Positions 17,048 to 48,203 of a DNA stretch of 64,000 nucleotides are shown here, piece after piece; the first letter of the stretch is position 1, and each line of letters starts with the position of its first letter. The notes under the pieces are model-generated. The model was not told where the DNA came from. It worked only from the letters and a program-made list of their open reading frames with translations, and searched no databases. The stretch is from an uncultured Clostridium sp. (lineage in GTDB: Bacteria; Bacillota; Clostridia; TANB77; CAG-508): the NCBI GenBank assembly GCA_947647595.1, contig CANSKZ010000001.1:12912-76911 (forward strand). Direction: 5' to 3'. Made by a program: the position numbers and the translations under genes.

Positions 17048-17070
17048 AATTTATCCTTTCATTTATAAAA

Positions 17071-31174: not shown

Positions 31175-31387
31175 ATTTTTCTCCATTATTTATTGTGTTT
31201 ACAAAAATATATAATTCATAGTAACATAATTGAGTAAAAAATGGCAAGAGTTTTTTGAAGATAAAAGAATTTATAAATGTCCAAAAATGTCGAACGAAAA
31301 CGATTGTATTATCGGCAAAAAACTGCTACAATAAATAAAAAGAAATGTGGCAGTTTCAAAAAATATACAAATTTTTACAAAAAAGTA

Positions 31388-31932: not shown

Positions 31933-31952
31933 AATTTAATAAAATATAAATG

Positions 31953-31982
31953 GAGCCACGTTTTAAAAGCGTGGCTTTTTTT
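31953..31982 (+). terminator. rho-independent terminator
   Basis: agccacg-ttttaaaa-gcgtggct followed by TTTTTTT. Confidence 0.75.
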
Positions 31983-32087
31983 GGATAACTTTAAAATTAT
32001 ATTACATTTTGATTACATTTTCAAAAAAAGTATTGAAAAAAAATGAAACATATTGTAAAATGAAAATAGTAATTATTGGAGGAAAGA

Positions 32088-32477
32088 ATGAATAGACCAA
32101 GATTTAAGCAAATATTTGCTATCATATTAATTCTTATGTGTGTTTCTTGCATTTTTCCGGTGTCATTTGTGCGTGCAACAGGAAATAACTTTAATTTTTC
32201 TTCTTATGATAATCCTGCAAGTAATGCAGTAGCTAACAGTACTGCTAAAAAGGTAATGGGAATGGGAATTAATATTATAAGAGTTGTTGCAACAGGAGTT
32301 GCAGTTATTATGCTAAGCTATATTGGAATTAAATATATGATGGCAGCACCAGATCAAAAAGCAGAATTTAAAAAAAGTGCTACAATTTATGTTTTAGGTG
32401 CAATATTAATATTTGCAGCAGGAAATATTTTAACGATTATAGTCAATTTTGCAACAAGTAACATAGTAACCAAGTAA
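32088..32477 (+). CDS. VirB2/TrbC-like candidate pilin paralog 2
   Basis: ATG at 32088 after GGAGG. Conserved C-terminal module IKYMMAAPDQKAEFKKSATIYVLGAILIFAAGNIL. Confidence 0.6.
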   Translation: MNRPRFKQIFAIILILMCVSCIFPVSFVRATGNNFNFSSYDNPASNAVANSTAKKVMGMGINIIRVVATGVAVIMLSYIGIKYMMAAPDQKAEFKKSATIYVLGAILIFAAGNILTIIVNFATSNIVTK

Positions 32478-32512
32478 TATAGTAACGTAGAAAAATGTAT
32501 AAGGAGGAAATT

Positions 32513-32920
32513 ATGAAAAGGAATATAAGGGTGATTTGTGCAATATTAATTTTTTTAAATATAATATTCTTATTAGTAAATGTGTCATTGGCGGCAACAA
32601 TAAGTTCAGTAGATTCGCTTTTAGGTGAAGTTAAAGTTGGAAATACGACTTGGAATGATGCAGATACTACAAAAGGTGTAACTAATACAACACAAAAAGT
32701 AATCTCGACGGGGATTAATGTAATAAGAGTTGTAGGAACAGGAATTGCAATTATTATGTTGACATATGTGGCGATTAAATATATGTCAGCAGCACCAAGT
32801 GAAAAGGCAGAATTCAAGAAATCTGCAACAGCTATGATTGTAGGAGCAATTGTATTGTTTGCTGCTACAAATATATTAAAGATTATTGCAAATTTTGCTA
32901 CAGCTAATATAGGTTCATAG
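32513..32920 (+). CDS. VirB2/TrbC-like candidate pilin paralog 3
   Basis: RBS AAGGAGG. C-terminal module about 88% identical at DNA level to paralog 4. Confidence 0.6.
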   Translation: MKRNIRVICAILIFLNIIFLLVNVSLAATISSVDSLLGEVKVGNTTWNDADTTKGVTNTTQKVISTGINVIRVVGTGIAIIMLTYVAIKYMSAAPSEKAEFKKSATAMIVGAIVLFAATNILKIIANFATANIGS

Positions 32921-32930
32921 GAGGAAAAAA

Positions 32931-33323
32931 ATGAAAAAGAAAATAAAACAAATTTTTATAACATTATTTTTTATAAGTTTAATACTTTTTTTACAAAACA
33001 CATCATTTGCAACAGGCTGGTCTGCAACAACTGAAATAACTAATGCTGATAAGGGTTGGAGCCAGGATATAAATGATGGTGGTATAGGCAATACGACAAA
33101 AAGAATAGTAGGAACAGCAATTAATGTGATTAGAATAGTAGGCACAGGAATTGCAATTATCATGCTAACTTATGTAGCAATTAAATATATGTCAGCAGCA
33201 CCAACTGAAAAAGCAGAATTCAAGAAATCAGCAACAGCAATGATAGTAGGAGCAATTGTATTATTTGCTGCTACAAATATATTGACAGTTATTTCTAACT
33301 TTGCTGCTTCAAATGTTAAGTAA
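32931..33323 (+). CDS. VirB2/TrbC-like candidate pilin paralog 4
   Basis: RBS GGAGG. IKYMSAAPTEKAEFKKSATAMIVGAIVLFAATNIL. Confidence 0.6.
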   Translation: MKKKIKQIFITLFFISLILFLQNTSFATGWSATTEITNADKGWSQDINDGGIGNTTKRIVGTAINVIRIVGTGIAIIMLTYVAIKYMSAAPTEKAEFKKSATAMIVGAIVLFAATNILTVISNFAASNVK

Positions 33324-33358
33324 TTTAACTTTTAATTAGAATTTGATAAAACAAAAGA

Positions 33359-33383
33359 AGCTACATTTTGTAGCTTTTTGTTA
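33359..33383 (+). terminator. rho-independent terminator
   Basis: aagctaca-ttt-tgtagctt followed by TTT. Confidence 0.65.
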
Positions 33384-33472
33384 TATAAAAATAATTTCAA
33401 AAAATGTTGAAAAAAATAAGAAATTCAGTTATAATAAGTTTAAGAGGAAAATAAATTTGAGGAGGAATAAAT

Positions 33473-33859
33473 GTGAGCCAAAAGTTGAGAATAATTTTAA
33501 TAGTAGCGTTGTTGATTGTTGGAGTATTTTTTATAAATAATGAAGTGTTTGCAGTAGCTCAAAAGGGAAAAAGTTTGGTAAATTCCTTTAGTGGTACTGG
33601 CACAAATGTGATTGATACTACAGAAGGAGGGGGATTAATTGATAAAATTGCTGGTCCAATTTTATCAGTAATGAGAATTGTTGCAATTGGAATTGGTATG
33701 ATTATGATAACGTTTTTAGGAATTAAATATATGTCAGCAGCACCTACAGAAAAAGCAAGTATAAAAAATCAATTAATTGCATTTGCAGTTGGATTGGCTG
33801 TTGTTGTATCAGCAACAACTATATTACAAATGATATATACAGCTGTAACAAATCTATAA
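33473..33859 (+). CDS. VirB2/TrbC-like candidate pilin paralog 5 (GTG start)
   Basis: GGAGG lies 8 nt upstream of the GTG. The ATG at 33471 runs into a stop immediately. IKYMSAAPTEKASIKNQLIAFAVGLAVVV. Confidence 0.55.
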   Translation: MSQKLRIILIVALLIVGVFFINNEVFAVAQKGKSLVNSFSGTGTNVIDTTEGGGLIDKIAGPILSVMRIVAIGIGMIMITFLGIKYMSAAPTEKASIKNQLIAFAVGLAVVVSATTILQMIYTAVTNL

Positions 33860-33879
33860 TAATATAAGGGAGAATAATT

Positions 33880-34263
33880 ATGAGATTGAAAAAAGTAATC
33901 ATTTTATTAGTTTTATGTATGATTTTTATTTGTTTAATACCCAAAAAAACATTGGCAACAACAATTACAGATGGAAATCTTAAGAATATTGTCGAGAATC
34001 CAAAAATGAAGGATGTTGGTAAAGCAACTACTGGTGGCAGGATACAAAAAGTATTAAATACTGTTATAAAATTGATACAATTAGCGGGGACAGCTGTATC
34101 TGTCATTATGGTAACGATGCTTGGAATTAAATATATGCTATCAAGTTCGACTGAAAAAGCTGAAATAAAAAAGACGGCAATGCCAATTATTATTGGTTGT
34201 GTATTATTATTTGCAGCCGTTAATTTAGTTGGTATTATTGCAGATATTGGAGTTAATCTTTAA
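33880..34263 (+). CDS. VirB2/TrbC-like candidate pilin paralog 6
   Basis: RBS AAGGGAG. IKYMLSSSTEKAEIKKTAMPIIIGCVLLFAAVNLV. Confidence 0.55.
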   Translation: MRLKKVIILLVLCMIFICLIPKKTLATTITDGNLKNIVENPKMKDVGKATTGGRIQKVLNTVIKLIQLAGTAVSVIMVTMLGIKYMLSSSTEKAEIKKTAMPIIIGCVLLFAAVNLVGIIADIGVNL

Positions 34264-34285
34264 AAGAAGAAATAATAAACAAAAA

Positions 34286-34316
34286 ATGGAAAAGCAAATT
34301 GCTTTTCCATTTTTTG
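34286..34316 (+). terminator. rho-independent terminator
   Basis: atggaaaagc-aaatt-gcttttccat followed by TTTTTT. Confidence 0.75.
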
Positions 34317-34502
34317 TCGTTTTTATTACATTTGTGTTACAAATGCAAAATTTGCGTGAAAAATGTTGAAAAATGATTTGTTTTAAAGTATAATAATATT
34401 GAGATAATATAAAAAGTAAAAATGGGTCAACTTAGAAATACACGATTGTTTTAGATTAAAAGGAAGGGAGAAATTAGTTGTTAAAACTAATTAAAAATAA
34501 AA

Positions 34503-34913
34503 ATGAAATTATATAAAAAACTCTTGTTAATGTTTGTAGTAGTTAATCTATTAGTAGGCTGGATTTGTTTTAATAAGTTTGAAGTGAGTGCAACAGATTT
34601 TATAACGAAAATGGAAAAGGATGCTTCAAGTTTTATTTCATCAGGAGAAACGGAAGCAAATAAAAAGAAAATGGGAAATGTTACAAAAGCCATTACTGAT
34701 AACTTTTCAGGGCTAGGTCAACTTTTGACGATGGTTGGTGCTGGTGTTATGGTTGCAGTTGTGTCGTATATGGGAATTCAATATATTATGGCTCCACCAG
34801 ATAAGCAAGCAGCTTTAAAGCAACAATTGATTGGTGTTGTTGTGGCAGGAATTGTTATATTTGGAGCTTATGGAATTTGGAAAGCGGTTTTAGGAGTTGT
34901 ATCGAATTTTTAA
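34503..34913 (+). CDS. VirB2/TrbC-like candidate pilin paralog 7 (most divergent; first gene of the downstream operon)
   Basis: Same topology (IQYIMAPPDKQAALKQQLIGVVVAGIVIFGAYGI). Weak RBS. A TTGAAA-17-TATAAT promoter lies at about 34374-34402. Confidence 0.5.
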   Translation: MKLYKKLLLMFVVVNLLVGWICFNKFEVSATDFITKMEKDASSFISSGETEANKKKMGNVTKAITDNFSGLGQLLTMVGAGVMVAVVSYMGIQYIMAPPDKQAALKQQLIGVVVAGIVIFGAYGIWKAVLGVVSNF

Positions 34914-34934: not shown

Positions 34935-35285
34935 ATGGGAACGTATTATATACCACGTAATTATAAGGGAGAATCAAGAATATTATATATTTTTTCAGTA
35001 AAATCATTACTAACAACAGCGATTGGCGCTGGAATAGGGGCCATATTTCTTTGGCTGTTTTCGATGATGGCATTGAAGAAAGTAGGCATTATTATCATGG
35101 CGATTTTTGCTGTGGTTGGATATATTGTGGGAGCAGTTAAAATTCCGACGATTGTCAGTATTCCAGTTACAAAGAAAATTGGTGGAGAGCCAATTAGTGA
35201 AATTATTATTCGTTATGTGAAATTTAAGAAAACACGTAAAATATATACTTATTGCCAAAACAAAGATACTAAGGAGGAAAATTAG
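34935..35285 (+). CDS. small two-TM protein, VirB3/PrgI/TcpE-like by size, topology and position immediately upstream of the VirB4-like genes
   Basis: 116 aa with two adjacent hydrophobic helices and no signal peptide. RBS AAGGAGG. Confidence 0.5.
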   Translation: MGTYYIPRNYKGESRILYIFSVKSLLTTAIGAGIGAIFLWLFSMMALKKVGIIIMAIFAVVGYIVGAVKIPTIVSIPVTKKIGGEPISEIIIRYVKFKKTRKIYTYCQNKDTKEEN

Positions 35286-36626
35286 ATGGATATTATTACA
35301 TTGTTGCAAATCATGATTGGCTTTATTATTTTTATCATGTTTTTGTTGGTTTTATTTTATTTATATTTAATTAAACCCAAAAAACAGAAGAAAGAAGAAG
35401 AGTCAACTCAAATTGGATATGCACAGGAAACAGGAAAAGAAAAGAAAATAGAAAATTATGGACGATTCCAAGGAGAATTGACACAAGAATCCATTTTTGA
35501 TTTTATGGAATTTGACGAAGTAATTGACAATATGATTGTTCGTAAGAACAAGACACAATATATCATGGTTTTACAATGTAATGGTGTGAATTATGATTTG
35601 ATGTCTGAACAAGAAAAAATTGCGGTTGAGGAAGGATTTGTACAATTTTTGAATACGCTTAGATTTCCAATCCAATTATATGTGCAAAGTAGAACATTAA
35701 ATTTGAAAGATATTGTGGCTGGCTATAAGGAAAGAGTGAATGTTGTTAGCAATGATATTAGTAAAATTGACATGAAGATTGAACAAGCACAAAGAGCTAA
35801 TAATAAAGCTTTACTAGAAAAACTTTATTTTGAGAAAAGAAGAAAACAAAATGTTTTGGAATACGGAATTGATATTACAAATTATGTGGACCGATTGAAT
35901 TCTAATCAAAATATTTTGCAACAAAGAACTTATGTGATTGTTTCCTTTTTTATCAATGAGCTTGGTGGAAGCATGGAAAATTATTCGAAAGAAGAAATTG
36001 ATAATATGTGTTTTTCAGAGCTTTATACGAGATGTCAAAATGTTTCAAGCAGTCTTATGGGGTCACAAGTTAGTAGCCGAATTTTGGAATCAGAAGAGTT
36101 GATGGAATTATTGTATATTGCTTATAACAGAGATGAATCGGAATTATATCAATTACAAAAAGCATTGGATGCACAATATGATGCATTGTATAGTACAGGA
36201 AAAGATGTGTTGCAAAAGAAACAAGAAAAATTGGACAAAGAGATTAATATTGCAGCCATCGATATGGCAACAGATAGCATTCTAAGAGCAGATAAACAAA
36301 AGCAAAAGGAAGATTTAGAAAGAGAAAAAGATAAGACAAGAGCGATTAAAGATAAAGCATCTGAGTTGTTAGACCAATATGAAGACCAATTGAATCCAAG
36401 AGTTTTTGAATTGGCGAAGGAGAATGTTCGAAAAAGTCCAGAACCAGAAGAAAAGAAGGAATCTCAAAAGATTCCTCAAAAAACTGGGACAAGACAAACA
36501 ACGGTAAGAAGAGTTCCAAAAGCTCAGGGAACCCAAGCAGAACCTCAAACAAGAGCACGAACAACAGGGACGGAAGCTCCAAGAAGAAAAGTTGTAAAAA
36601 GGAATAATACAACACCAGAAGACTAA
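35286..36626 (+). CDS. membrane-anchored protein (N-terminal TM helix) with a basic, T/P/K-rich C-terminal tail; probable T4SS component
   Basis: 446 aa. The region IMVLQCNGVNYDLMSEQEKIAVEEGFVQFLNTLRFPIQLYVQS resembles the N-terminal domain pattern of Gram-positive VirB4/ConE proteins (recalled from memory, not verified). Confidence 0.55.
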   Translation: MDIITLLQIMIGFIIFIMFLLVLFYLYLIKPKKQKKEEESTQIGYAQETGKEKKIENYGRFQGELTQESIFDFMEFDEVIDNMIVRKNKTQYIMVLQCNGVNYDLMSEQEKIAVEEGFVQFLNTLRFPIQLYVQSRTLNLKDIVAGYKERVNVVSNDISKIDMKIEQAQRANNKALLEKLYFEKRRKQNVLEYGIDITNYVDRLNSNQNILQQRTYVIVSFFINELGGSMENYSKEEIDNMCFSELYTRCQNVSSSLMGSQVSSRILESEELMELLYIAYNRDESELYQLQKALDAQYDALYSTGKDVLQKKQEKLDKEINIAAIDMATDSILRADKQKQKEDLEREKDKTRAIKDKASELLDQYEDQLNPRVFELAKENVRKSPEPEEKKESQKIPQKTGTRQTTVRRVPKAQGTQAEPQTRARTTGTEAPRRKVVKRNNTTPED

Positions 36627-36646: not shown

Positions 36647-37756
36647 ATGTTTGGAACAAAAAAACAAGAATCTACAAATGAGTTTGAATTAGAAGTCAAA
36701 AAAGAAAAAGAAGTGAAAAGCATTTTCAAAAAAGAGGAGAAGGATTTGAAGCATTTGATTGCTCCAGGAGGAATTGATGCGAGTTATACCAATCATATTG
36801 AAATTGCTTCTGGTCGAACAAGATATGCTAGAAGTATGATTGTGGCAGCTTTGCCTAGAATGTGTACGTTCCCAGAATTTTTGAGAGGAATGTATACGTT
36901 TGGTGATATTAATGTGTCTGTTTTTATTAATCCAGTAAGTGAGTCTACTTCTCAAACAGATTTGAACCGAACGATTAATGAGTTGGAATCTGAAAGGGTA
37001 GTTGCGCAAGATAGAGGTGATATTAACAGGGAAAGAATTATTGCACAGAAAAGGGCTGAAGCAGAAGAATTAAGAGATGCCATTGCAGCAGGTTTTAATA
37101 AATTATTTGATGCTACAATCATTTCCACAATTTTTGCTTATAGTATGGATGAATTGGATAAATATACAGAATTACTAAGCAATGAGATGTCTAAAAATTT
37201 GATTGATATGAAACCAGCTTGGGCGATGCAAGATGCTGCTTTTCGTTCGAATATGCCATTTTGTGAAAATAAATTAAATAAATCGCATACTTTTGATAGA
37301 AGAGCAATGTCAACGGTATTTCCGTTCTTTAATTCAGAAGTTGGTCATGATGATGGAATTCCACTTGGATTTAACAAGCAGACAGGACTTCCAATTTTGT
37401 ATAATAATTTTAGTTCGAAATTAACGAATTATAATATGATTGTATTTGGAAAATCTGGTGCTGGTAAATCAGTTACGATAAAAACACTTTCTGCACGTTC
37501 TTCGATTTTAATGGGAATCGAGAGTTTGGCTTTAGATGCAGAAGGTGAATATGGTTCTGTTGCAGAATCTTTAGGTGGTGTTAATGTTGTTATTAGCCCA
37601 ACTTCGAAAACAGTTATTAATGTTTTTGACATTGAACCTGAGGTAATTAAAGATGAAATAACAGGAAAAGAAAGAACGGTTGTAAGCGTTGAAAATAAAG
37701 TAGAAGATGTTACGCAAGGTTTGCTTACGATGGCAAGACGGAAGTACAGGAAGTAA
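36647..37756 (+). CDS. VirB4/TraE/ConE-family conjugation-type ATPase, N-terminal part including Walker A (gene interrupted by a frameshift near 37720-37745)
   Basis: LIAPGGID region. Walker A FGKSGAGKSV. The frame ends at ...TMARRKYRK and the next frame continues. Confidence 0.7.
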   Translation: MFGTKKQESTNEFELEVKKEKEVKSIFKKEEKDLKHLIAPGGIDASYTNHIEIASGRTRYARSMIVAALPRMCTFPEFLRGMYTFGDINVSVFINPVSESTSQTDLNRTINELESERVVAQDRGDINRERIIAQKRAEAEELRDAIAAGFNKLFDATIISTIFAYSMDELDKYTELLSNEMSKNLIDMKPAWAMQDAAFRSNMPFCENKLNKSHTFDRRAMSTVFPFFNSEVGHDDGIPLGFNKQTGLPILYNNFSSKLTNYNMIVFGKSGAGKSVTIKTLSARSSILMGIESLALDAEGEYGSVAESLGGVNVVISPTSKTVINVFDIEPEVIKDEITGKERTVVSVENKVEDVTQGLLTMARRKYRK

Positions 37757-38636
37757 GGAAGTAAACGAGCTTACGAAACAAATTATTTCAGAATCAGTTT
37801 TGGAAGAATATGTGAGTCGTGGAATTAATAGTACAGTGGAAAGTTTGTATGAAAAATCAAACGATGGACGTATTAATATGTCGCAAGATTATTTGGGAAA
37901 AGTAAAAAAGGAAATGCCTACGATTGGTTCTTGGTATAAAAGAATTTGCCGAAAGGCACAGGAAAATGAAAATCCAGATTATCGTTTCCATTATAGTTAT
38001 TTGGTAAAAGTTATGAAGCAATATGTTAGAGAATTACATGGACAAATGGCGTATTTTGATGGGCAATCGACATTTGAATTGTTAGATGGTGTGCCATTTA
38101 TTAATTTGGATATTTCTCAATTGGAGGAAAGATTTGCAAGACCACTTGCTCAGCAAATTTTGCTTTCTTGGGTTTGGGAAAAGTATGTTAAGAAAAATAG
38201 TGAGGATAAAACCAAAGCTGCCAAAAAAAGAGTTCTTGTTGACGAAGCATGGATGATGCTTCCACTTCCAGAGGCAGTTGATTTCTTGAATACTATGGCA
38301 AGACGTGCTAGAAAGAGAAATGTTTCATTAGCTGTTATTTCACAAAAATTCCAAGATTTTTATGAAAAACCAGAAGCGCAAGCAATTTTGACTTCGTCAG
38401 AAACGAAGTTGTTTTTGGCACAGGATAAATCAGAAATTGAATATTTAAAGGAAGTATTTAAATTAAGTGAAGGTGAAGCTGGATTTTTGATTACTTGTGG
38501 AAGAGGTGAAGGTTTGCTTAGAGTTGGTGGTGATTCTGCGATTTTATCTATTCAGCCAACAAACAAAGAGTTTGAATTTGTGGAAACAAACTTAAATAAA
38601 CAAATTGAAATGGAAAAAGCAAGACAGCAACAATAA
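37707..38636 (+). CDS. VirB4-family ATPase, C-terminal part (Walker B RVLVDEAWMML, AVISQ motif)
   Basis: This frame overlaps the end of the previous ORF across an imperfect GGAAGTA x3 repeat. Together the two parts give about 665 aa. Confidence 0.7.
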   Translation: MLRKVCLRWQDGSTGSKEVNELTKQIISESVLEEYVSRGINSTVESLYEKSNDGRINMSQDYLGKVKKEMPTIGSWYKRICRKAQENENPDYRFHYSYLVKVMKQYVRELHGQMAYFDGQSTFELLDGVPFINLDISQLEERFARPLAQQILLSWVWEKYVKKNSEDKTKAAKKRVLVDEAWMMLPLPEAVDFLNTMARRARKRNVSLAVISQKFQDFYEKPEAQAILTSSETKLFLAQDKSEIEYLKEVFKLSEGEAGFLITCGRGEGLLRVGGDSAILSIQPTNKEFEFVETNLNKQIEMEKARQQQ

Positions 38637-38657
38637 TATTAAAAAATGAGGTTATCA

Positions 38658-39845
38658 ATGAAAAAAATAATAAGCACGCTGGTAGTGGCGGTGATTTTAT
38701 TTAATTTCATATTTTGCAATAGTGGTTATGCAACTGAAAATGTAGAATTTAAGGATGATGTGACAACAGATTCGATATCAGGTAAAGATTTGGAAGGACT
38801 TATTAGTGAGTCAAAAGCAAATTATGTGGACAGCGAAACCAAAGTAGATTTTAGTTCATTGGGAACTGGAATATTTGGAACAATTGGAGGAATATTAGCT
38901 AGATTTTTTAATATTTTTCCACAGTTAATCAGACTGATTATGCTACTTTGTGTGGTAGAAGAGTTTACGATTCAGAAGGCAGTGTTTAATGAAATATCAA
39001 TCTTTAATATAGATTATTTCAATTTTAAAGAACCATATGAGTATACCATAGGAAATAAAATTGGTGATAATAATTATAAAAAAAAGATAAAATCTGGTAA
39101 TACAGTCGAAATTTCGATTCGAAAAAGTGTTGCGAAATATTATTATATTTTAAGATTGATAGCAATGGCGCTTAGTTTAGTGATTTTAATCTATGTTGGA
39201 ATTAGAATGGCGTTGTCGACGATTTCTTCCGATAAAGCTAAGTATAAAGGAATGCTGATTGCTTGGATAGAAAGTATTGTATTATTATTTGCGATGCAGT
39301 ATATTATATCTTTTATAATAAGTGCTGGAAAGCTATTTGGTGATTTAATGTATTCACTTAGATGCATTATGGATGCTAGTGGAGAACTTAGCTTTGAAAC
39401 AGAAATTTTAGCAATGATGGACGTAGGATTATTGCAATATACTGGTTGGAGTTATGTTGGATATTCGATTGCTTTTTGGTTTTTAATTTATGTGCAAACT
39501 AAATTTTTCCTGATGTATTTTAAAAGAGTAATTACTGTTGGCTTTTTAATTTTAATCTCTCCGATTATAACCATTACTTACCCAATTGATAAGGTTGGTG
39601 ATGGAAAGGCGCAAGGTTTTACAATATGGAGTCATGAATTGATTTTAAATGTATTGATACAACCAATTCAAGCATTGATATATCTTGTTTTCATGTATAC
39701 AGCAGGAGAAATTGCGAAAATATCAATGTGGGTTGCTTTGGCATTTTTATTGGGATTAACGAAATTTGAGAAAATTATTTTACAATTGTTTAATTTGAGA
39801 AATGTTGTAAGTTTGAAACCTGTTGATGAGCAAAGGAAAAAATAA
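38658..39845 (+). CDS. VirB6/ConG-like polytopic membrane protein, paralog A (signal peptide plus about 150-aa extracytoplasmic N-terminal domain)
   Basis: Motifs shared with paralogs B and C: AKYYYILRLIAMALSLVILIYVGIRMALSTISSDKAKYKGML and ITVGFLILISPIITITYPIDKVGDGKAQGF. At least 5 TM helices. Confidence 0.6.
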   Translation: MKKIISTLVVAVILFNFIFCNSGYATENVEFKDDVTTDSISGKDLEGLISESKANYVDSETKVDFSSLGTGIFGTIGGILARFFNIFPQLIRLIMLLCVVEEFTIQKAVFNEISIFNIDYFNFKEPYEYTIGNKIGDNNYKKKIKSGNTVEISIRKSVAKYYYILRLIAMALSLVILIYVGIRMALSTISSDKAKYKGMLIAWIESIVLLFAMQYIISFIISAGKLFGDLMYSLRCIMDASGELSFETEILAMMDVGLLQYTGWSYVGYSIAFWFLIYVQTKFFLMYFKRVITVGFLILISPIITITYPIDKVGDGKAQGFTIWSHELILNVLIQPIQALIYLVFMYTAGEIAKISMWVALAFLLGLTKFEKIILQLFNLRNVVSLKPVDEQRKK

Positions 39846-39856
39846 TGGAGGACTAA

Positions 39857-41404
39857 ATGCAAAAAGGAAAATATATCAATCAGAATCAAGTTAGGAAAAA
39901 AGTAATAATTTTAATTGCTGTGGTAAGTTTGATTTTTGTTTTGTTAGTTTTAGAAGCAATGTTAAAAAATATCCAAAATGAAAATCAGGAAAAAGAGTTG
40001 CAAATGGCAAATGGAAATTTTACTTCTGTTGAAGATATTTTGGAATATTATGGATGCCAAGTGATAAAAATCAAAAATAACACAGAAGGCAATTTTTTGG
40101 TTGATATATATACAACATTCAAATATGAATTATATGAAGATGAAAAGAGCAATGAAGAATTTTATAACAAAATAATCAATCAAATTGCTAAATTTTTAAA
40201 TTATCGAAATTTCAGAATGGTGGATGAACAAAAAGAAGAAAAAATAGAAATACAAGTAATTTGTGGCAAAAATAAAATACAAAAAATTTTGATTAATGGA
40301 ATTGAAGATTATTTTATTTATATGGATTCGCAGATTAATTTAAGCAAATACAAGGAAATTCCAACAACAGAAGCTTCGATTCAATCGCCTGAATTAATCA
40401 GTTGCATTCAAAATAATTGGAATGCTAATGTGAATTTTGGTACAAGAGAAACGATTTTTCAGAATTATTATATTTATTTTGATGAAGGAATAGAAGTACG
40501 AAAAATTAGTGGAAAAATTTACAATGTAGTTTTTACAAAAAATTATGTAAAACCAGTTGTAAATGGCTTTACTGTTGGAGAAAAACGTGATATAATAATA
40601 AGAGAACTAGGAAATCCAACTTTTGAAAATGAAAATAAAAGTATCATAGGATATAAAACGAAAGATATTTATGTTTTTTTTGAAGAAAATCAGATTTCCA
40701 TTTACAGAAACATAACAGAAACTGGATTTGACGAATTTTTTACATTAGTAGATAAATTTTTAGAAGAAGAATATTCTCTTTTAGAATTTATGAATGAGCT
40801 AACTTATTTATGGCCTGATTATGAAGAATATACATATGATGCAGAAACTGTGTTTTTATCGTATCCGAATAAAGGAATTGATATTAAAATGAATTATGAC
40901 CATACCAACGGAATTGTGATTTATAATAACATAGGAGTAACGCAAAATGAGATAAATAAGTATTTTAATTATACAGAATTTATTGCTTTATTGCAAATTG
41001 ATAATGTGTATAATGCTGAGATAAGACGAGTGAATAAGCAATTAGAATTTGCTAAAAAGTGTGAAGAATATCAAATACAGTATGAGGAAAAAGACAATAG
41101 AAATCGAGGAAAAAATTACGATTATTATATGAAAATGGGCAATAATGGAGGAATTATTTGCACCTATTTTATAGCAAAAAATCCACAATATCCAAATTGC
41201 GAATTAAGTGAAAATATAAATTCTTATATTTGGGTGAATGAAGATTGCTTTGTATATAGTGTTGTAAATAAAGGAATCTATTATTACGATTTAAAAACAC
41301 AGAAGAAAGGAACGATTATTACAGGAAATGAGAATTTTGAAATAAAATCTTATCAGGAGGATATTTTAAAATATGATGATAGTGAATTACAAATAAAATA
41401 TTAG
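39857..41404 (+). CDS. hypothetical membrane-anchored extracytoplasmic protein (515 aa)
   Basis: RBS GGAGGA and an N-terminal TM helix. No motif recognised. Possible VirB8-like role suggested only by its position in the cluster. Confidence 0.5.
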   Translation: MQKGKYINQNQVRKKVIILIAVVSLIFVLLVLEAMLKNIQNENQEKELQMANGNFTSVEDILEYYGCQVIKIKNNTEGNFLVDIYTTFKYELYEDEKSNEEFYNKIINQIAKFLNYRNFRMVDEQKEEKIEIQVICGKNKIQKILINGIEDYFIYMDSQINLSKYKEIPTTEASIQSPELISCIQNNWNANVNFGTRETIFQNYYIYFDEGIEVRKISGKIYNVVFTKNYVKPVVNGFTVGEKRDIIIRELGNPTFENENKSIIGYKTKDIYVFFEENQISIYRNITETGFDEFFTLVDKFLEEEYSLLEFMNELTYLWPDYEEYTYDAETVFLSYPNKGIDIKMNYDHTNGIVIYNNIGVTQNEINKYFNYTEFIALLQIDNVYNAEIRRVNKQLEFAKKCEEYQIQYEEKDNRNRGKNYDYYMKMGNNGGIICTYFIAKNPQYPNCELSENINSYIWVNEDCFVYSVVNKGIYYYDLKTQKKGTIITGNENFEIKSYQEDILKYDDSELQIKY

Positions 41405-41416
41405 GAGGTTGAATGC

Positions 41417-44400
41417 ATGAAGTCAATTATTAGCAGAATTTCATATAAAATGTTAGTAACAACAATGATAACAGTAATATTGTCTTTCTTTGTTGTGACT
41501 TCATGTTCTCATGCCAATAAATTTAGTGAATTAGTTAATGATGATGGAATCTATTATAATGGAACCCAAGAATCTACGCTTTCTGAAAAAGATGGATTTT
41601 TTGCAAAGCTTGTCAACCTTTTATCAAGTATTGCAACGTATTTGTTAGGGTTGATAGGATTAGGAATTCGAGGTGTTTTCATTGGATGGATAGAAATTGC
41701 TGAAATGTTACTGACGATGATTTTAGATATTGATGGTGACCTAGGCAAAATAAATGATGATGCAATGGATGTTTATACAGAAAATATAGTAAATGTAGAA
41801 AGTATATTATTTAACAGAGTTCCAATATTAGAAGCTAACATCTTCAAAAGTCTTAATGCTGAAAATGAGAAGAAAGATGAGAAAAAAGAAGAATCGAAAA
41901 CAAAAGAAGAAAAAGCAGCAGAAAAGAAAGAAAAAAAAGAAAATAAAATTGTTACAGCCATTAAAAGTGCAGTTGCAAAATGGTATTATGTTTTAAGATT
42001 AATGGTTATTGCACTTATGTTAATTCTACTAATTTTTGTGGGAATAAAAATGGCCATTTCTACAGTTGCTTCGGAAAAGGCAGTCTATAAGCAAATGCTA
42101 ACTGATTGGATTGTAGGAATGATTATTGTATTTATGATTCATTATATTATGGTTCTTATTTTTACAATTAATGATTCTGTTATTAATGGATTAGAACCGT
42201 TACTAAATAATAATAGTACATTAGAATTAGAAGAATATCAATACGGTATAGAACCTGAAGAAATTGAGACTTTTGGTGACCGCGAAACAACTTTATATGA
42301 ATCAGCTAGAACAAGAGCCTATAGTTTAAATTTGGTAGATGGTTTTACAGGAATGGTTATTTATGGTGTATTAGTTTATTATGCTTGGCGATTTGCGGTT
42401 ATGTATTTAATGAGAGTATTTAATATTATGATACTTACTTTAATAGCACCAGTGATTGCAGCATCTTATGCAGTAAATAAAGTATTAACAGGAAAATCAA
42501 AGATATTTTCAAGTTGGCTGAATGAATATATTATTAATGTTATTATTCGATTATTCCATGTAATTATTTATGTTTCATTTGTAGCAATTGCTTTAGAATT
42601 ATCTTTAGAGTCATTGCCAGGAATTATTCTAGCTTTTGTTATGTTACATTTTATGCTTGAGGCAGATAAATTGCTAAGAACATTATTCAAAATGTCTGGA
42701 GGCAAAGGCAGTTTATCTGGAACAATGGAAAAAACAAATCTTAATGATATTAAGAGTGGAATAAAAGGACTAGGAGCTACGATGGTTGGAGGAAAAATTG
42801 GTATGGCTGCTATGAAAGCAACTTATGGAATTGCAACAAAACCAGGAAGAGCACTTGTTGAAACTGCATTTGGAAATCATATGGCAAAAAAAGCAAATCA
42901 AAAAGAACAAGAAGAAAAGAACAAACAAGAAGAAAAAGAAAAATTAGAAGAAAAGAAAAATGATTTAGAAGAAAGTATTGCAACATTAAAACAAAGACAA
43001 AATAATATAAAAGATAAAGAGTTTGATGCGGAAAGATGGCAAGCATGGTATAGAGCAGAAGGAGAAGAAACAAAACTAGGACAAAAGACACAGGAACTTC
43101 AAAATTTGAGGTTGCAAAAAACAGAAGTTGAAAAACAATTGCGTGAATATGAAGAAAAACTTGAAGAAGCAAATGATAATTTAGAATATAGGAATGAATT
43201 AAATAGAATTGAAGCATTAGAAAAAGAATTTTATGCAGGAACTTTTGGAGGTGCTATCGATAATTTATTTGACCCATTTAATTACACAGAAAAAGATAAG
43301 AAAACAGGAAAATATCGTCGCATGAGAGCAAGAAGAAAAGGTGGTGCTAAATATGCATTTTGGCGCAAAAAAGTGGATGGTATTGGAATGCGATTTATGG
43401 AAAATGCAAAATTAAAAAATCTATTTAATTTGTCAAACGATGAAGTAAAGCGCTTAAAAGAACAATTTAACTTTTCGAAATCAACAGTAGTTGGATTTTT
43501 CTCTGCTGCCTTTGGATTCCCTACTTTAGTGATTAATCCTACATTAGGAGTTGCTTTGCTTGGACAAGCAGGTTATTCTGGGTTACGAATGGCAACTAGA
43601 ATGAGACAAATTAAAAATAGACCTAGTTACAAAAAAAATAAACGCTATAATTTTGTTGCTTTCAACAAGGGAGCACAATATACGATGAAAGTAGAAGCTG
43701 TAAGACAAGCTAGGGAATTAGAAGCGGAAAGAACGCAAAGATTTGCAGGAAAACATCAAAAGTTTGTTAGAAAGCTATTGAATAATATGGTTAAAGCTAC
43801 TACAATTCCTGACCTTGACCCAATTACATCAGAAGAATTATCAGAATTGGCTTATATAAAATATACAAAGCAATTTAAAACAGCTTTAAAAGATTTAAAC
43901 GAATTAGAAACCTCTTTAAATAAAGCGGAATTTACTGAAAGATTTTCAGAAGAGGAAAGAAATCAGCAAGAGAAGGCAGAAAAAATGTCAGAGAAACAAT
44001 TATTATTTAAAGAATGTGCAAATCAGGAAGGTGTAATTGCAGTAGGAAATTCATTATTTGAAGTAAAAATGGATAATACAGTAGAACAAGCAGAAGAAAA
44101 ATTTATTGAAAATGCCGAGAAAAAAATGGATAAAGCATCAGGTCAAACAAGAGAACAAAGAATCAATTCACTTAAAAAACATATAACAGCGAATAAAGAT
44201 ACATTAATTCAAAATCAAATTGAAAAGTACTATGCTAGAAGAGGAATTATTGATATTAGTAACATGGAAATGTCTGAGAGTGATAAAACACAAATTAAAC
44301 AAAATGTTTTAGGTGTTTTAGAAGAAAAGGGGATTATCAAAAAAGGAGAAATAAAACTTGAGGATAATTTTATTAGTAATGAAAATGTTACAAGTATTCA

Positions 44401-45124
44401 TGCAAAATTGCAATCAAATAAAAATAAGACCAATCAATCCTTAGAGCAAAGAGTTGCTACAGATGCTGTTTTGGAATATATGAAACAAACGGGAACTACT
44501 AATAAAAATGACTTATTACAAAAAACAGATGAGATATATAATTTAGTAAAAGAAAAGATTATGACAAATGATTCGAAAAAATCAGCAGATGTTATCAAAA
44601 AGATTTCAGGTCAAGATAAGAAAAAGCAAGTGGTTCAGTTATCAGATTATATGAAAGAAGCAGTTGAAACAGATATCAAAAAAGTTAAGAAAGTAGATTT
44701 AGCAGATAAGTCAAAAGATAAAGAAACTTTAGTAGAACATGAAACAAATCGAAAAATGAATCAAACAAAAAACAAGCTAGAAGAAGCGTTATGTGCTGAT
44801 ACTGTTGAAAATATCGAAGATAATTCTACATTAGAGATGCTATTTGCTTTATCTAGAATTGGTGAAAATAATCGTGAGGCAGTAGAAGTGCTTGGAAAAA
44901 AACGAAAACAAACCAAGAAAGCACAATTAGAAACATTAGAATTTTATCAAGATGGAAGCCGAAAACTTGACAAAAACAAAGATGGAAGTCGAAAGTTTGA
45001 TGAAACAAAAGATGGAAGTAGAAGATTGGCTGAAGAATATTTTATGGAAAGCAAAAAAGAAGCTTTAGAAAAAAGGCTTTTCGGTCCATCGCAAAATGTA
45101 ATTGATTTAATTAATAATGTATAG
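41417..45124 (+). CDS. VirB6/ConG-like polytopic membrane protein, paralog B, with an 800-aa K/E-rich coiled-coil C-terminal extension (1,235 aa)
   Basis: Conserved module AKWYYVLRLMVIALMLILLIFVGIKMAISTVASEKAVYKQMLTDWI. Long charged repeats follow. RBS AGGAGG. Confidence 0.6.
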   Translation: MKSIISRISYKMLVTTMITVILSFFVVTSCSHANKFSELVNDDGIYYNGTQESTLSEKDGFFAKLVNLLSSIATYLLGLIGLGIRGVFIGWIEIAEMLLTMILDIDGDLGKINDDAMDVYTENIVNVESILFNRVPILEANIFKSLNAENEKKDEKKEESKTKEEKAAEKKEKKENKIVTAIKSAVAKWYYVLRLMVIALMLILLIFVGIKMAISTVASEKAVYKQMLTDWIVGMIIVFMIHYIMVLIFTINDSVINGLEPLLNNNSTLELEEYQYGIEPEEIETFGDRETTLYESARTRAYSLNLVDGFTGMVIYGVLVYYAWRFAVMYLMRVFNIMILTLIAPVIAASYAVNKVLTGKSKIFSSWLNEYIINVIIRLFHVIIYVSFVAIALELSLESLPGIILAFVMLHFMLEADKLLRTLFKMSGGKGSLSGTMEKTNLNDIKSGIKGLGATMVGGKIGMAAMKATYGIATKPGRALVETAFGNHMAKKANQKEQEEKNKQEEKEKLEEKKNDLEESIATLKQRQNNIKDKEFDAERWQAWYRAEGEETKLGQKTQELQNLRLQKTEVEKQLREYEEKLEEANDNLEYRNELNRIEALEKEFYAGTFGGAIDNLFDPFNYTEKDKKTGKYRRMRARRKGGAKYAFWRKKVDGIGMRFMENAKLKNLFNLSNDEVKRLKEQFNFSKSTVVGFFSAAFGFPTLVINPTLGVALLGQAGYSGLRMATRMRQIKNRPSYKKNKRYNFVAFNKGAQYTMKVEAVRQARELEAERTQRFAGKHQKFVRKLLNNMVKATTIPDLDPITSEELSELAYIKYTKQFKTALKDLNELETSLNKAEFTERFSEEERNQQEKAEKMSEKQLLFKECANQEGVIAVGNSLFEVKMDNTVEQAEEKFIENAEKKMDKASGQTREQRINSLKKHITANKDTLIQNQIEKYYARRGIIDISNMEMSESDKTQIKQNVLGVLEEKGIIKKGEIKLEDNFISNENVTSIHAKLQSNKNKTNQSLEQRVATDAVLEYMKQTGTTNKNDLLQKTDEIYNLVKEKIMTNDSKKSADVIKKISGQDKKKQVVQLSDYMKEAVETDIKKVKKVDLADKSKDKETLVEHETNRKMNQTKNKLEEALCADTVENIEDNSTLEMLFALSRIGENNREAVEVLGKKRKQTKKAQLETLEFYQDGSRKLDKNKDGSRKFDETKDGSRRLAEEYFMESKKEALEKRLFGPSQNVIDLINNV

Positions 45125-45140
45125 ATGAATGGTGGTGTAA

Positions 45141-47663
45141 ATGAAGAAGATGAAAGTAAAGAAAAAATTACAAAAAAAGTTATTGTTTATTGTAATGTTA
45201 GTGATTGTGCTATGTAATTGTTTTTCAATTATTTTTGAAAGTAATGTAGGATTTGCTACTGCTCTTGATAGTACTGATAGAGAAAATTTAAAAACACAAA
45301 TCGAAGAAACAAAAAATGGAGAAACAAAGACAACAGCACTTGATGCTGCTGCTAAAGATGAGGCTAGTAAGAATATGATTATTGGGCTTGAAGGATTTAT
45401 GAGTGGACTTGTTTATATTCTTACTATTATTCCTAGACTATTTTTACTGTTAATTGGATTTTTCATAAAAATCATAATGAATGCTTGTGTTAGTCTGGGA
45501 ACTGCTAGTATTACAGATGTTACTTTTGAGCATGTATTTTTCTCTGGATATAGTGGTACAAAATTCAGTGGGCTTGAATTTACAGATGTTAACTTTTTTG
45601 ATTTAACTGGTTCAGGAACAATTCTCTCTTTTAGAACAGCTGTTGCAAAATGGTATTATGTTATGAGATTAATTTCAGCAGCGATATTATTAGTTATTCT
45701 AATTTATGTAGGAATCAGAATGGCGTTATCGACAATTGCTTCAGAACAAGCAAAATATAAACAAATGTTGACTGATTGGATAACCAGTTTAGCTTTATTG
45801 TTTTTGTTACATTATATTATTATATTTGTTATTCAAGTAAACAATTCATTAGTTTCCGCATTAGGAGGAATGCTAAATTTAAAAAGTGGACAGACAGTAG
45901 GAAGTCGTTTAAATAGTCAACTTGTTGGTGATATTTGGTCAGATGGTGTCAATGGAATATTTGCAGCACTTATGTATGCGATGATAGCAGGTTCTGCATT
46001 TGGATTTTTTCTATTCTATTTAAAACGTATGATAACAGTAGGATTTTTAATTATTATTGCACCACTTATAACCATTACTTATTCAATTGACAAAATCGGA
46101 GATGGAAAAGCCCAAGCTTTAAATGCATGGTTAAAAGAATTAACATACAATATATTAATTCAACCATTTCATTGTATCATTTATTTAGCATTTTTTGGTG
46201 CGATGTCTGATATAATCGGGGATTCATCTTATGGAAATATTAGTGCTTATATTTTAGCTTATATTATTTTGAAGTTCATGAAAGAAGCAGAAGGAATTTT
46301 AAGAAAGATATTCCACTTTGAAGCGAATTCTATGCCAGGAATCAGTGAACCAGCGAAAGGATTTGCTGCTGCCTCAGGAAAATTTGCTCAAATTGGTATG
46401 AAAGGTGTTGGAGCATTTTCAAACTTTAAGGCTGCTGGAGGAGTTAAAGCATTTACAGGCGGATTTAGAAATATAGGAGCAAAGAAAGATGTAAAAGCTG
46501 CTTTTAACTCTGGAGAAATAAAAACAGATGCTAAAACATTTGAACAATTTAAGAAAACAGATGAATATGCGAAAGAATTAGATAAGAAAAAGACAGCTAG
46601 AGAAATGAAGTCTAGAAAGAATTCTAGAAGAACGGAAAAAGCTAGAAAAATCTATGAGAAACAAAATCCTGGAAAAAGTTATGACCAAATGATTGAAGAT
46701 GAAGCTAGAAAAGCTTATGATGAAAAGCATGAAGCAGGTGCTTATGAAAAAATGAAAAAGAAAGCAAGAGAAAGAGACGCATCTGGTCGACCAACAGAAG
46801 AGGCTAAAATGGCGCAACAAACAATCGATAATCAAAGAGCTAAAACGAAAGAAGCTAAAAACAGTTCTATTATAGGAAGTACAGGAATAAGAAAAACAAT
46901 TAATGGAGCAAAAACCGTAGCAGGTAATTTGGTAAACAGTGAGGGCGGAAAAGCATTGGGCGCTTACATGAAAGATAGTGCCAAAGTTGCATCAGCACTT
47001 GCTTTAGGTGCCTATGCTTATGGTGTAACAGGAAATCTAACAGATGCTACTTTATTTGGTCAATTAGGTTATGGTATGGCATATGGCGCACTAGAAGGAA
47101 CAACTAAAACAGCAACAGAGGATACAAAAGGACTTGTTCAACAATATGCACACAATAATAATTTAAGTCCAGAAGATATGAAAAAAATGATTCAAGAGCT
47201 TGTAAACGAATGTCATTCTATGGATTTTGCTGGAATGTTTAAGAAGATTCATGATGACCAAGTAAAAGCAACAGAAGAATTAAAGAAAATATTAGGAGAC
47301 AGTGCAAATGAAGTTATGGCAAAAATGATAGGAAAAACCAAAGTAGGAGAAGAGTACGATATTTCTGCTTTAATCGACCAATATAGTACACGTAATTTAA
47401 GTGATGATGAAAAAACAAATGCAGAAAGCATTGTAAAAGACTTTAGTGATTTATTGATTAAATCTCAAATTGCTGCACAATTTAACGTTGTTAAAGCTGG
47501 TGGAATGGATGTTGATTCATTTGGTAGAAAAGTAACCAACAATTATAATGTTACAGAGAGTAAAACTGATTATATTTATAATTATGAAGAAAATAGATAT
47601 GAAAATAAGTTTGAAGTTAATCAAAGTGAAGCTAGAAGAAGAGGAACTCAAACGAATACTTAG
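45141..47663 (+). CDS. VirB6/ConG-like polytopic membrane protein, paralog C, with a 440-aa hydrophilic C-terminal extension (840 aa)
   Basis: AKWYYVMRLISAAILLVILIYVGIRMALSTIASEQAKYKQMLTDWI and MITVGFLIIIAPLITITYSIDKIGDGKAQAL. About 60% identical to paralog A over the core. Confidence 0.6.
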   Translation: MKKMKVKKKLQKKLLFIVMLVIVLCNCFSIIFESNVGFATALDSTDRENLKTQIEETKNGETKTTALDAAAKDEASKNMIIGLEGFMSGLVYILTIIPRLFLLLIGFFIKIIMNACVSLGTASITDVTFEHVFFSGYSGTKFSGLEFTDVNFFDLTGSGTILSFRTAVAKWYYVMRLISAAILLVILIYVGIRMALSTIASEQAKYKQMLTDWITSLALLFLLHYIIIFVIQVNNSLVSALGGMLNLKSGQTVGSRLNSQLVGDIWSDGVNGIFAALMYAMIAGSAFGFFLFYLKRMITVGFLIIIAPLITITYSIDKIGDGKAQALNAWLKELTYNILIQPFHCIIYLAFFGAMSDIIGDSSYGNISAYILAYIILKFMKEAEGILRKIFHFEANSMPGISEPAKGFAAASGKFAQIGMKGVGAFSNFKAAGGVKAFTGGFRNIGAKKDVKAAFNSGEIKTDAKTFEQFKKTDEYAKELDKKKTAREMKSRKNSRRTEKARKIYEKQNPGKSYDQMIEDEARKAYDEKHEAGAYEKMKKKARERDASGRPTEEAKMAQQTIDNQRAKTKEAKNSSIIGSTGIRKTINGAKTVAGNLVNSEGGKALGAYMKDSAKVASALALGAYAYGVTGNLTDATLFGQLGYGMAYGALEGTTKTATEDTKGLVQQYAHNNNLSPEDMKKMIQELVNECHSMDFAGMFKKIHDDQVKATEELKKILGDSANEVMAKMIGKTKVGEEYDISALIDQYSTRNLSDDEKTNAESIVKDFSDLLIKSQIAAQFNVVKAGGMDVDSFGRKVTNNYNVTESKTDYIYNYEENRYENKFEVNQSEARRRGTQTNT

Positions 47664-47678: not shown

Positions 47679-48203
47679 ATGTCAAATTCAAAAAAGAAGA
47701 ATCAAATAGGTTACAAAAAGTTATATATTTTAATCATCCTTATTATTTTAATAACGATATTAATCGGAAACTTGAATTCTAGACTTACAAAAGATGAGTT
47801 GTCAAGTCCACAAAGCGAAGAAGAAGTAGAAGAATATATTGAGCAAAATATTACGAAAACTTTGCAAGGAATGGAAGAAAGAGACAGAATGGAATATTAT
47901 GTTGGGATATTTTTAGGATACATAGAAAGTGGAGAATATGAAGATGCTTATCATTTACTATATGAAGATTTTAAAAAAACATATTTCCCAACATTAGAAT
48001 CTTTTGAAAAATATATCCCAACTGTGTTTTCTGAAATGACAGATATAAAACATGAAAATATCGAAAGAAATGGTGATGTGTATGTTTTATGGATTAAAAT
48101 TACGGATGCTGTCAATGGCAAACCAGGAGAACAAAGAAACATGAATATTGTCATTAAGGAAAATGATTATAATGACTTTGTTTTATCATTTAGTGCGATA
48201 TAA
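47679..48203 (+). CDS. hypothetical membrane-anchored protein (174 aa)
   Basis: RBS AAGGAGAG. N-terminal TM helix. Confidence 0.5.
   Translation: MSNSKKKNQIGYKKLYILIILIILITILIGNLNSRLTKDELSSPQSEEEVEEYIEQNITKTLQGMEERDRMEYYVGIFLGYIESGEYEDAYHLLYEDFKKTYFPTLESFEKYIPTVFSEMTDIKHENIERNGDVYVLWIKITDAVNGKPGEQRNMNIVIKENDYNDFVLSFSAI

Follow-up and report, generated by a model that had tools for sequence, protein, structure and literature searches.

The stretch of DNA analysed here (the window, 64,000 nucleotides of contig CANSKZ010000001.1 from an uncultured Clostridium sp., positions 12,912 to 76,911) contains a cluster of type IV secretion system (T4SS) genes in which virB4 is followed by the genes for three large membrane proteins, referred to as paralogs A, B and C. 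Profile comparisons indicate that their conserved core opens with a hairpin of the VirB2 pilin type, which is homologous to the free pilins encoded in the same cluster. According to these data, and to the genetic context and predicted structures described below, A, B and C are probably non-redundant, VirB6-equivalent membrane subunits of a chromosomally fixed, pilus-forming type IV secretion machine.

The three paralogs are encoded as follows:

38646..39845, + strand: paralog A, 399 aa (395 aa from the ATG at 38658), core only
41417..45124, + strand: paralog B, 1235 aa, with N-region and core to about residue 430 (42706) and an 805-aa tail (42707-45124)
45141..47663, + strand: paralog C, 840 aa, with N-region and core to about residue 400 (46340) and a 440-aa tail (46341-47663)

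Paralog A consists of a signal/anchor helix, an acidic extracytoplasmic N-terminal region with a helical hairpin, a five-helix core and a short basic C-terminus. A preliminary description of this DNA had proposed three paralogs with a common core of about 250 aa. The three proteins are indeed true paralogs, since BLASTP aligns A with B at E=3e-32 (32% over 252 aa), A with C at E=1e-49 (46% over 200 aa) and B with C at E=4e-51 (32% over 369 aa). The extent of the common part had been underestimated, as comparison of profiles that include the orthologues reveals that the N-terminal regions are also homologous across A, B and C (hhalign probability 97.9-99.4%, E 3e-13 to 5e-21). The shared part therefore reaches about 400 aa, and the extracytoplasmic N-domain, which had been considered special to A, is not peculiar to this paralog. 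The claim that the ends of the proteins differ entirely applies to the tails of B and C, which are unrelated to each other (hhalign 0.4%), and not to the N-regions. Regarding the two motifs originally described, motif 1 (AK[WY]YY..RL...VGI[RK]MA[LI]ST..S..A.YK.ML..WI) is found in A, B and C, whereas motif 2 (ITVGFLI..P.ITITY.IDK.GDGKAQ) is near-identical in A and C but diverged in B, where it reads FNIMILTLIAPVIAASYAVNKVLTGKSK.

A hydropathy scan identifies five or more hydrophobic helices in each paralog, which agrees with the polytopic character of TrbL/VirB6 proteins, and the helices of the AlphaFold models span residues 153-381 in A and 159-390 in C. A total of 38 columns are invariant in 42 A orthologues. 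When identity is measured per 40-aa block, most core blocks show approximately 40-65% (29-66% for those of B), compared with 6-30% in the tail of B and 8-23% in that of C. The B tail is rich in Lys (13.7%) and Glu (11.6%), as had been noted, and the length of B varies between 795 and 2180 aa among its orthologues. The coiled coil that had been attributed to this tail is not confirmed, since a crude, home-made heptad score of the B and C tails is not above that of composition-matched shuffles. The C tail, of the 440 aa originally given, is likewise rich in Lys and Glu and is predicted to be helical in the AlphaFold model of C, and it is kept in 11 representatives at 24-63% identity. Two further features of the tails were observed. 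Near the C-terminus of B (44940-45040, residues ~1176-1206) there are three tandem copies of (Q/K)DGSR(K/R)(L/F), and a glycine-rich hydrophobic segment with GQ.GYG (B ~688-722, C ~612-650) is the best-conserved stretch of both otherwise unrelated tails.

The pilin-type hairpin and the relation to VirB6

The putative VirB2-type hairpins are located at the following positions:

39087..39323, + strand: transmembrane hairpin of VirB2 type within A, residues 148-226, assigned by hhalign to the window pilins
41930-42166, + strand: equivalent hairpin in B, residues ~172-250
45600-45836, + strand: equivalent hairpin in C, residues ~154-232

The profile of the seven pilins of the window aligns with the family profile at an hhalign probability of 94.9% (E 4.5e-8) over 78 columns, with pilin positions 54-131 facing residues 148-226 of A. 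The loop motifs of both correspond, being IKYMSAAPSEKAEFKKS in the pilins and IRMALSTIASEQAKYKQM in the paralogs. Furthermore, the Pfam model PF18895 (T4SS_pilin) matches A and C weakly, precisely on motif 1 (17.9 and 18.1 bits, with a cutoff of 26.6), and it is matched by 28 of 39 diverse relatives (best E 1.5e-6). In the controls, the pilin profile gave 0.06% with TrwI, the VirB6 protein of R388, and both the pilin and the family profiles gave at most 2.3% with each of seven pCF10 proteins, several of which are membrane proteins. The preliminary description had considered that mapping of the shared motif to an unrelated family would speak against its VirB6 assignment. Motif 1 does fall in another family, yet that family is the machine's own pilin. 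The likeness to VirB2-type pilins (PF18895, PF04956) resides in a two-helix hairpin with a basic loop. Those pilins are small subunits of about 130 aa that are released into a filament, whereas the hairpin reported here is embedded in polytopic proteins of 399-1235 aa.

The genetic setting of the paralogs is that of a VirB6 protein. They are encoded in a T4SS cluster adjoining virB3/virB4, in an order that is kept in the 80 loci listed (of 200 confirmed relatives) in a survey of one-genome-per-species GTDB contigs. Structural predictions point in the same direction. For the AlphaFold model of A (predicted local distance difference test score, pLDDT, of 80), the best match in the PDB is R388 TrwI/VirB6 (7o3v_G), with a probability of 0.99, a template modelling (TM) score of 0.48 by target, 260 columns and E 0.08, and TrwI/VirB6 chains account for five of the top nine matches. 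The model of C, built from a separate alignment (pLDDT 68), has TrwI/VirB6 chains as its top five matches, with probabilities of 0.84-1.0 and TM scores of 0.41-0.52. These alignments cover about 260-280 columns, which is nearly the whole TrwI chain, while the Foldseek E values of the TrwI matches (0.08-0.14) are by themselves not significant. The models thus suggest that the paralogs weakly resemble VirB6 in fold. Like the paralogs, TrwI is a polytopic helical subunit encoded beside virB4. For R388 VirB6/TrwI, a role as a pentameric platform has been proposed, in which VirB2 is recruited at the two membrane helices and assembled at a further site above (PMC11294453), and by analogy the pilin-like hairpin of the paralogs may correspond to these two helices. 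In contrast to TrwI, the paralogs hold an extra N-terminal extracytoplasmic region and occur in three copies, two of them with long tails, and the two proteins show no sequence or profile similarity.

Only three curated models besides those of pilins are touched by the family. These are NF045848 (MMCAP2_0566 family), matched by 30 of the 39 relatives (best 4.6e-11), NF045889 (the Mbov_0396 protein of a mycoplasma integrative and conjugative element, ICE), matched by 10 (best 8.3e-11), and NF045890 (pLS20_p028), matched by four (best 2e-8). In the window, residues 186-427 of B match positions 54-292 of a 322-position model of the mycoplasma ICE/pLS20 type (E 1.3e-6). In a 2025 review, the mycoplasma ICE protein CDS16 was called "likely the VirB6-like component" (PMC12857230). 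By our own reading, Mbov_0396 (NF045889) and NF045848 correspond to CDS16, because Mbov_0396 is, by locus-tag numbering, the neighbour of the VirB4 gene Mbov_0397. The likeness to these proteins thus consists of remote homology over most of the model and, for the mycoplasma protein, of a position next to a VirB4 of related type. However, the mycoplasma and pLS20 proteins are about 300 aa long, single-copy and devoid of long tails, and the mobile elements that encode them also have a coupling protein and either a relaxase or a DDE transposase.

Several observations weigh against a VirB6-equivalent role. The TrbL/VirB6 model PF04610 is matched neither by A, B and C at E<=0.1 nor by the 39 relatives at E<=0.01, and the family compared with 26 TrwI-like PF04610 proteins gives an hhalign probability of 0.24% (E 0.25). 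The comparison with PrgH of pCF10 yields 0.1%, and the family profile retrieves nothing from the PDB sequences at E<=10. The scores of the window proteins on the NCBIfam models mentioned above are 12.6-27.9 bits, with curated cutoffs of 70-90. As these scores, like those of the relatives, are far under the cutoffs, they denote remote homology to the mycoplasma ICE/pLS20 proteins, not membership. In addition, the oligomeric state, the pilus and the expression of these genes in the uncultured hosts are presumed. Finally, 13 loci hold A and C only, lacking B and the 515-aa gene located between A and B, which means that B is dispensable in some lineages.

Other searches against VirB6-type proteins were likewise negative. 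None of the TrbL/VirB6, ConG, TcpH, PrgH or CD-type models of Pfam/NCBIfam is matched by A, B, C or the 39 relatives, and hhalign of the family with PrgD, PrgE, PrgF, PrgG, PrgH, PrgI and PrgL of pCF10 was negative. At the sequence level, the search for TrbL/VirB6, ConG and TcpH therefore gave the result which the preliminary description itself had named as contrary to its assignment, and by sequence comparison the paralogs are not members of TrbL/VirB6. The term VirB6-like holds for the T4SS position, the polytopy and the weak match of the models to TrwI.

In the simplest model of topology, the proteins would be N-out after the signal/anchor helix, followed by a short helical hairpin (69-103) and five membrane helices, and would end C-in. 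Given a C-in topology, the tails of B and C would be cytoplasmic. A different arrangement, with helices 3-5 building a stalk outside the membrane in the manner of TrwI (PMC12857230), would require the location of the tails to be revised and counts as one more point against the proposed model. Charge is unevenly distributed in the 42 A orthologues. Segments 30-68 (net -6.5), 104-152 (-3.9) and 227-270 (-3.0) are acidic, while the pilin loop at 190-202 (+2.2), an invariant KR at 293-296 (+2.0) and the C-terminus (+2.4) are basic.

The following mechanism can be proposed. The VirB4 ATPase, with its VirB3-like and TrsD-like partners, would extract the free pilins from the membrane. The paralogs would assemble above this complex, perhaps as a mixed oligomer similar to the TrwI/VirB6 pentamer, and their built-in hairpins may constitute a fixed first layer or a docking site at which the seven free pilins are recruited and polymerised. 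The remaining helices would anchor the base of the filament and line the passage, and the tails of B and C may extend to the ATPase or bring in cargo. A path through the wall would be made by the mutually paralogous bitopic proteins together with the very large hydrolase of the cluster. In this scheme the topology, the oligomeric assembly, the templating by the hairpins and what the tails do are all inferred, as is the fold, whose assignment is weak.

A different function for A, B and C would be that of giant pilus-associated proteins (minor pilins or adhesins with a VirB5-like function), in which the hairpin is inserted at the tip or the base of the filament and the extracytoplasmic region is displayed to the target cell. 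The pilin-type hairpin that opens the core, the acidic extracytoplasmic N-region common to the three paralogs, the fact that no VirB5 homologue was seen in Pfam scans of the cluster genes, and the weak match of one relative to a "Mbov_0395 pilin-like" model would all suit such proteins. Nevertheless, three more hydrophobic helices and cytoplasmic tails of 440-805 aa make extraction from the membrane hard to picture, the alignment with TrwI/VirB6 involves the whole core and not just the hairpin, and the extracytoplasmic region is short (~120 aa). This function is consequently considered unlikely.

The gene cluster, its distribution and its mobility

Apart from the paralogs, the cluster includes the following genes:

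29738..31186, - strand: polytopic membrane protein, 482 aa, with no Pfam match; adjoins the pilin genes in many related loci, in either orientation
31474..34913, + strand: seven VirB2-type pilin genes (152, 133, 141, 130, 128, 127 and 136 aa), matching PF18895 (T4SS_pilin) and/or PF04956 (TrbC)
34935..35285, + strand: PrgI/VirB3-like small membrane protein; PF12666 (PrgI) at E 1.4e-3, under the curated cutoff
35286..36626, + strand: TrsD-like protein, 446 aa, with an N-terminal transmembrane helix; VirB4 N-terminal domain as a separate gene
36647..38636, + strand: VirB4 ATPase in two frames (36647-37756 and 37707-38636), matching VirB4 models at E 1e-39 and 1e-23
39857..41404, + strand: bitopic protein, 515 aa, with one N-terminal transmembrane helix predicted from the sequence; co-occurs with paralog B
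47679..48203, + strand: bitopic protein, 174 aa, paralog of the N-terminal part of the 321-aa protein; weak DUF3887 match
48215..49180, + strand: bitopic protein, 321 aa, with a domain like the 174-aa protein and an extra C-terminal domain
49197..54290, + strand: membrane-anchored cell-wall hydrolase, 1697 aa, with a putative VirB1-like role; Peptidase_C39_2 at E 2.7e-14 and Phage_lysozyme2 at E 1.8e-21
54328..54918, + strand: bitopic protein, 196 aa, final gene of the cluster, kept in related loci; rpsF-ssb-rpsR next

All seven pilins match their models at E 3e-9 to 1e-4, and they are divergent, with 23-46% identity to the first pilin of the array. In related loci, the arrays contain three to eight genes. 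The 482-aa polytopic protein is possibly an accessory factor, involved for example in pilin modification. The PrgI/VirB3-like protein holds two or three hydrophobic helices according to the hydropathy scan, and in related loci its gene keeps its position just 5' of virB4, with the TrsD-like gene alone in between. The product of the latter is membrane-anchored, with a C-terminal half rich in Lys, Glu and Gln. It weakly matches positions 48-248 of the mycoplasma VirB4 model, and an identical gene in one related locus (L001) has a precomputed match to PF26593 (TraC-like). The VirB4 open reading frames (ORFs), for their part, start near position 180 of the CD1110 VirB4 model. A separate gene for the VirB4 N-terminal domain has parallels in TrsD of pGO1 and in Patescibacteria (PMC12102498). 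Paralog A starts 10 nt past the VirB4 stop codon.

The anchored proteins that had been reported between and after the paralogs are real. Those of 174 and 321 aa are paralogs of each other (hhalign 98.4%, E 7.7e-15), and a relationship of the former with the N-terminal part of the 515-aa protein is possible (hhalign 72%). Profile searches of the PDB sequences with these three proteins gave no significant match, and hhalign against the VirB8-like PrgL and against PrgD was negative, so that a VirB8-like scaffold role for the 174-aa protein stays a guess. The hydrolase resembles PrgK of pCF10 (BLAST E 5e-5). It combines a C39-like cysteine peptidase and phage-tail-lysozyme domains with a long middle region to which no domain is assigned, and its counterparts in related loci have 731-1515 aa. 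Among the cluster genes scanned with Pfam/NCBIfam, none matched VirB7, VirB9, VirB10 or VirB11.

The family is large. Paralog A has 549 homologues, none of them named or with a Pfam domain, and the family profile retrieves 4,168 clusters at 50% identity with E<=1e-3, 2,675 of which reach E<=1e-30. Almost all of the 80 loci come from uncultured gut metagenome-assembled genomes (MAGs) labelled Clostridia, Clostridium sp., Eubacteriales or Lachnospiraceae, and Candidatus Scatovivens and Clostridium sp. CAG:571 are among them. Scatovivens belongs to the GTDB order TANB77, family CAG-508 (PMC13106387), and TANB77 is an uncultured order with reduced genomes (PMC11680825). We infer that the whole set of loci belongs to this order. 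A conserved pilus cluster has been published for TANB77, but it is not the locus reported here, as it encodes a Tad pilus (PMC11680825).

The gene order maintained in these loci is the 482-aa gene, three to eight pilins, the PrgI-like and TrsD-like genes, virB4, A, the 515-aa gene, B, C, the 174-aa and 321-aa genes and the hydrolase. The 515-aa gene, which is absent wherever B is absent, is present in one or two copies where B occurs (doubled in many loci), indicating that both travel together. The conserved order, together with consistent best-hit labels, implies that the duplications predate the divergence of the species and that the copies are non-redundant.

The preliminary description had compared the genes with ICEs, which normally have a single VirB6/ConG. 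That the locus is itself an ICE was rejected on account of the housekeeping genes that flank the cluster, the synteny in 80 MAG loci and the lack of a relaxase, a coupling protein or an integrase nearby. The left border is formed by minD/minE/rodA/dusB/mazF (from reading the translations, with mazF confirmed by Pfam), and the right one by the genes of ribosomal protein S6, the single-stranded DNA-binding protein and S18 (rpsF-ssb-rpsR), then mraZ/rsmH (these two from reading only). No relaxase, coupling protein, integrase or element repeats were seen in the 64-kb window. Two coupling proteins and two relaxases were used as BLAST queries and gave no match, either in the window or in the related loci (10 kb on each side of the paralog A gene), whereas VirB4, the positive control of the same searches, was matched in 68 loci.

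It could still be argued that the cluster is a conjugation channel, domesticated or active, with A, B and C as its membrane proteins and with the genes of the relaxase and the coupling protein at another place in the genome. Mycoplasma ICEs and pLS20 encode membrane proteins that are remote homologues of the family, the VirB4 is nearest to the CD1110 and mycoplasma ICE VirB4 models, and coupling-protein genes can sit far from virB4 (PMC12102498). Against this, besides the flanks, the synteny and the negative searches just described, tblastn with the core of C found no match in 72,556 plasmids (PLSDB, in a collection that did not include the pLS20 record AB615352) or in 50,697 phages. A classical conjugation system is therefore unlikely, and a channel served from a distance is regarded as rather improbable.

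Two other regions of the window attracted attention. At 8964-10956, a product with a prepilin-type hydrophobic N-terminus (GITLIALIVTVIVLIIL) and no Pfam match is followed, after a gap of about 100 nt, by an RCC1-repeat beta-propeller protein; both are unrelated to the T4SS. At 15029-21369, on the - strand and with 22-28% GC, a 1432-aa protein resembling the adenylation/reductase type of nonribosomal peptide synthetases lies by a histidine kinase and an HD-type response regulator, according to a reading of the translations.

The candidate frameshift in virB4

The two frames of virB4 meet at the following site:

37733-37756, + strand: candidate +1 frameshift site, with the CGG codon at 37739-37741; one extra C compared with intact orthologues

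At this site the window has GCA AGA C GGA AGT in place of the GCA AGA GGA AGT of intact orthologues. The additional C is shared by nine sequences from independent assemblies, namely the window and the related loci L001, L003, L004, L007, L011, L012, L013 and L015. The zero frame stops a few codons on (…LLTMARRKYRK*), while the +1 frame continues the ancestral GSTGSKEVNELTKQ…, and the changes between species are synonymous in that frame. In L011 there is a stop just 5' in the +1 frame, and consequently independent initiation cannot explain the conservation. Of the Arg codons, the one involved here, CGG, is used least (5 of 11,208 codons). The frameshifted loci group together in a neighbour-joining tree, and this clade includes a single revertant, L014. 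A pseudogene or a sequencing error was rejected, as the same inserted C appears in assemblies from independent studies and the downstream frame is conserved. This virB4 is thus a good candidate to carry a conserved programmed +1 frameshift at a hungry codon, situated between Walker A and Walker B.

It is hardly tenable that these genes are the decaying, functionless relics of an ancient mobile element, although the out-of-frame virB4, the 13 loci devoid of B and the fragmented ORFs of some loci could be adduced for this idea. The window and most of the 80 loci have uninterrupted ORFs for A, B and C, with strongly conserved cores, and in eight related loci purifying selection maintains the downstream frame of the frameshifted virB4.

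Comparison with known systems and significance

The tandem arrangement of extended paralogs is reminiscent of the Rickettsiales, as had been pointed out in the preliminary description. RvhB6a-e and VirB6-1 to VirB6-4 of Anaplasma/Ehrlichia are also tandem VirB6-type genes with large hydrophilic extensions, accompanied by VirB2 paralogs (PMC2653234, PMC7648143, PMC12857230). However, these proteins carry a TrbL/VirB6 domain and function in the Gram-negative, effector-translocating system of intracellular bacteria, while the paralogs reported here lack a TrbL domain and the host of the window belongs to a lineage of monoderm Clostridia known from MAGs. Since no homology of the core or of the tails was found, the likeness is architectural and convergent, and the parallel does not serve as evidence of effector secretion. 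Extended VirB6 proteins are also known from Gram-positive systems of the mating-pair-formation type FA (MPF-FA), such as Orf15 of Tn916, with 700-900 aa and added poorly structured domains (PMC12857230), a size near that of B and C, so that size alone is not unusual. Unlike the paralogs, the MPF-FA proteins are single-copy and encoded on ICEs. No Pfam/NCBIfam match links the MPF-FA proteins to the family.

The cluster shares its layout with the T4SS of Patescibacteria (candidate phyla radiation, CPR), which comprises a pilin array (2-11 genes in that group), PrgI/VirB3, TrsD, VirB4 and a VirB6-like protein, usually with no relaxase and often with no coupling protein near virB4, in monoderm hosts with reduced genomes (PMC12102498). 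Judging by this published description, the locus has the same constitution, with pilins, PrgI, TrsD, VirB4 and VirB6-like proteins and with no relaxase or coupling protein found at the locus. Both systems differ in that the host is here a member of the Bacillota, that most CPR VirB6 proteins are detected with the MPF-T VirB6 profile, which the paralogs do not match, and that a triplication with extended tails has not been described for the CPR.

A literature search retrieved no paper describing this locus or family. The novelty lies in the combination of three features: a large unannotated family at the VirB6 position that begins with a pilin module, a triplication with lineage-wide retention, and, in Bacillota, a T4SS with a pilin array that is chromosomal and near which no relaxase was found. 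The locus bears on two points of a 2025 review (PMC12857230), which are the presence of VirB2 pilins in Gram-positives and the role of extended VirB6 proteins. According to that review, VirB2 pilins are not otherwise found in the T4SSs of Gram-positives, Patescibacteria excepted. The locus shows a pilin-array T4SS in ordinary Bacillota, in at least 80 species-level MAG loci, and a pilin module within proteins at the VirB6 position offers a concrete model for seeding a pilus on a membrane platform. If confirmed, the +1 frameshift of virB4 would add a secretion ATPase to the known examples of programmed frameshifting. TANB77 has been tied to the response to checkpoint therapy through its Tad pilus (PMC11680825), and a second conserved surface machine in this order is therefore of practical interest.

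More tentatively, the gut Clostridia of the reduced-genome order TANB77 might carry a non-conjugative pilin-array T4SS of the kind that is essential to epibiotic Patescibacteria, with a pilin fusion as its platform. This broader view is possible, though doubtful. If it is true, these bacteria would have a contact-dependent and partner-dependent lifestyle, and their lineage would possibly be the source of the CPR system. The pilus would then have the VirB2 hairpin as a first layer anchored in the membrane, the long-proposed assembly step between VirB6 and VirB2 would become directly readable from sequence, and it would be suggested that the VirB6-type subunits of monoderms have evolved from pilins.

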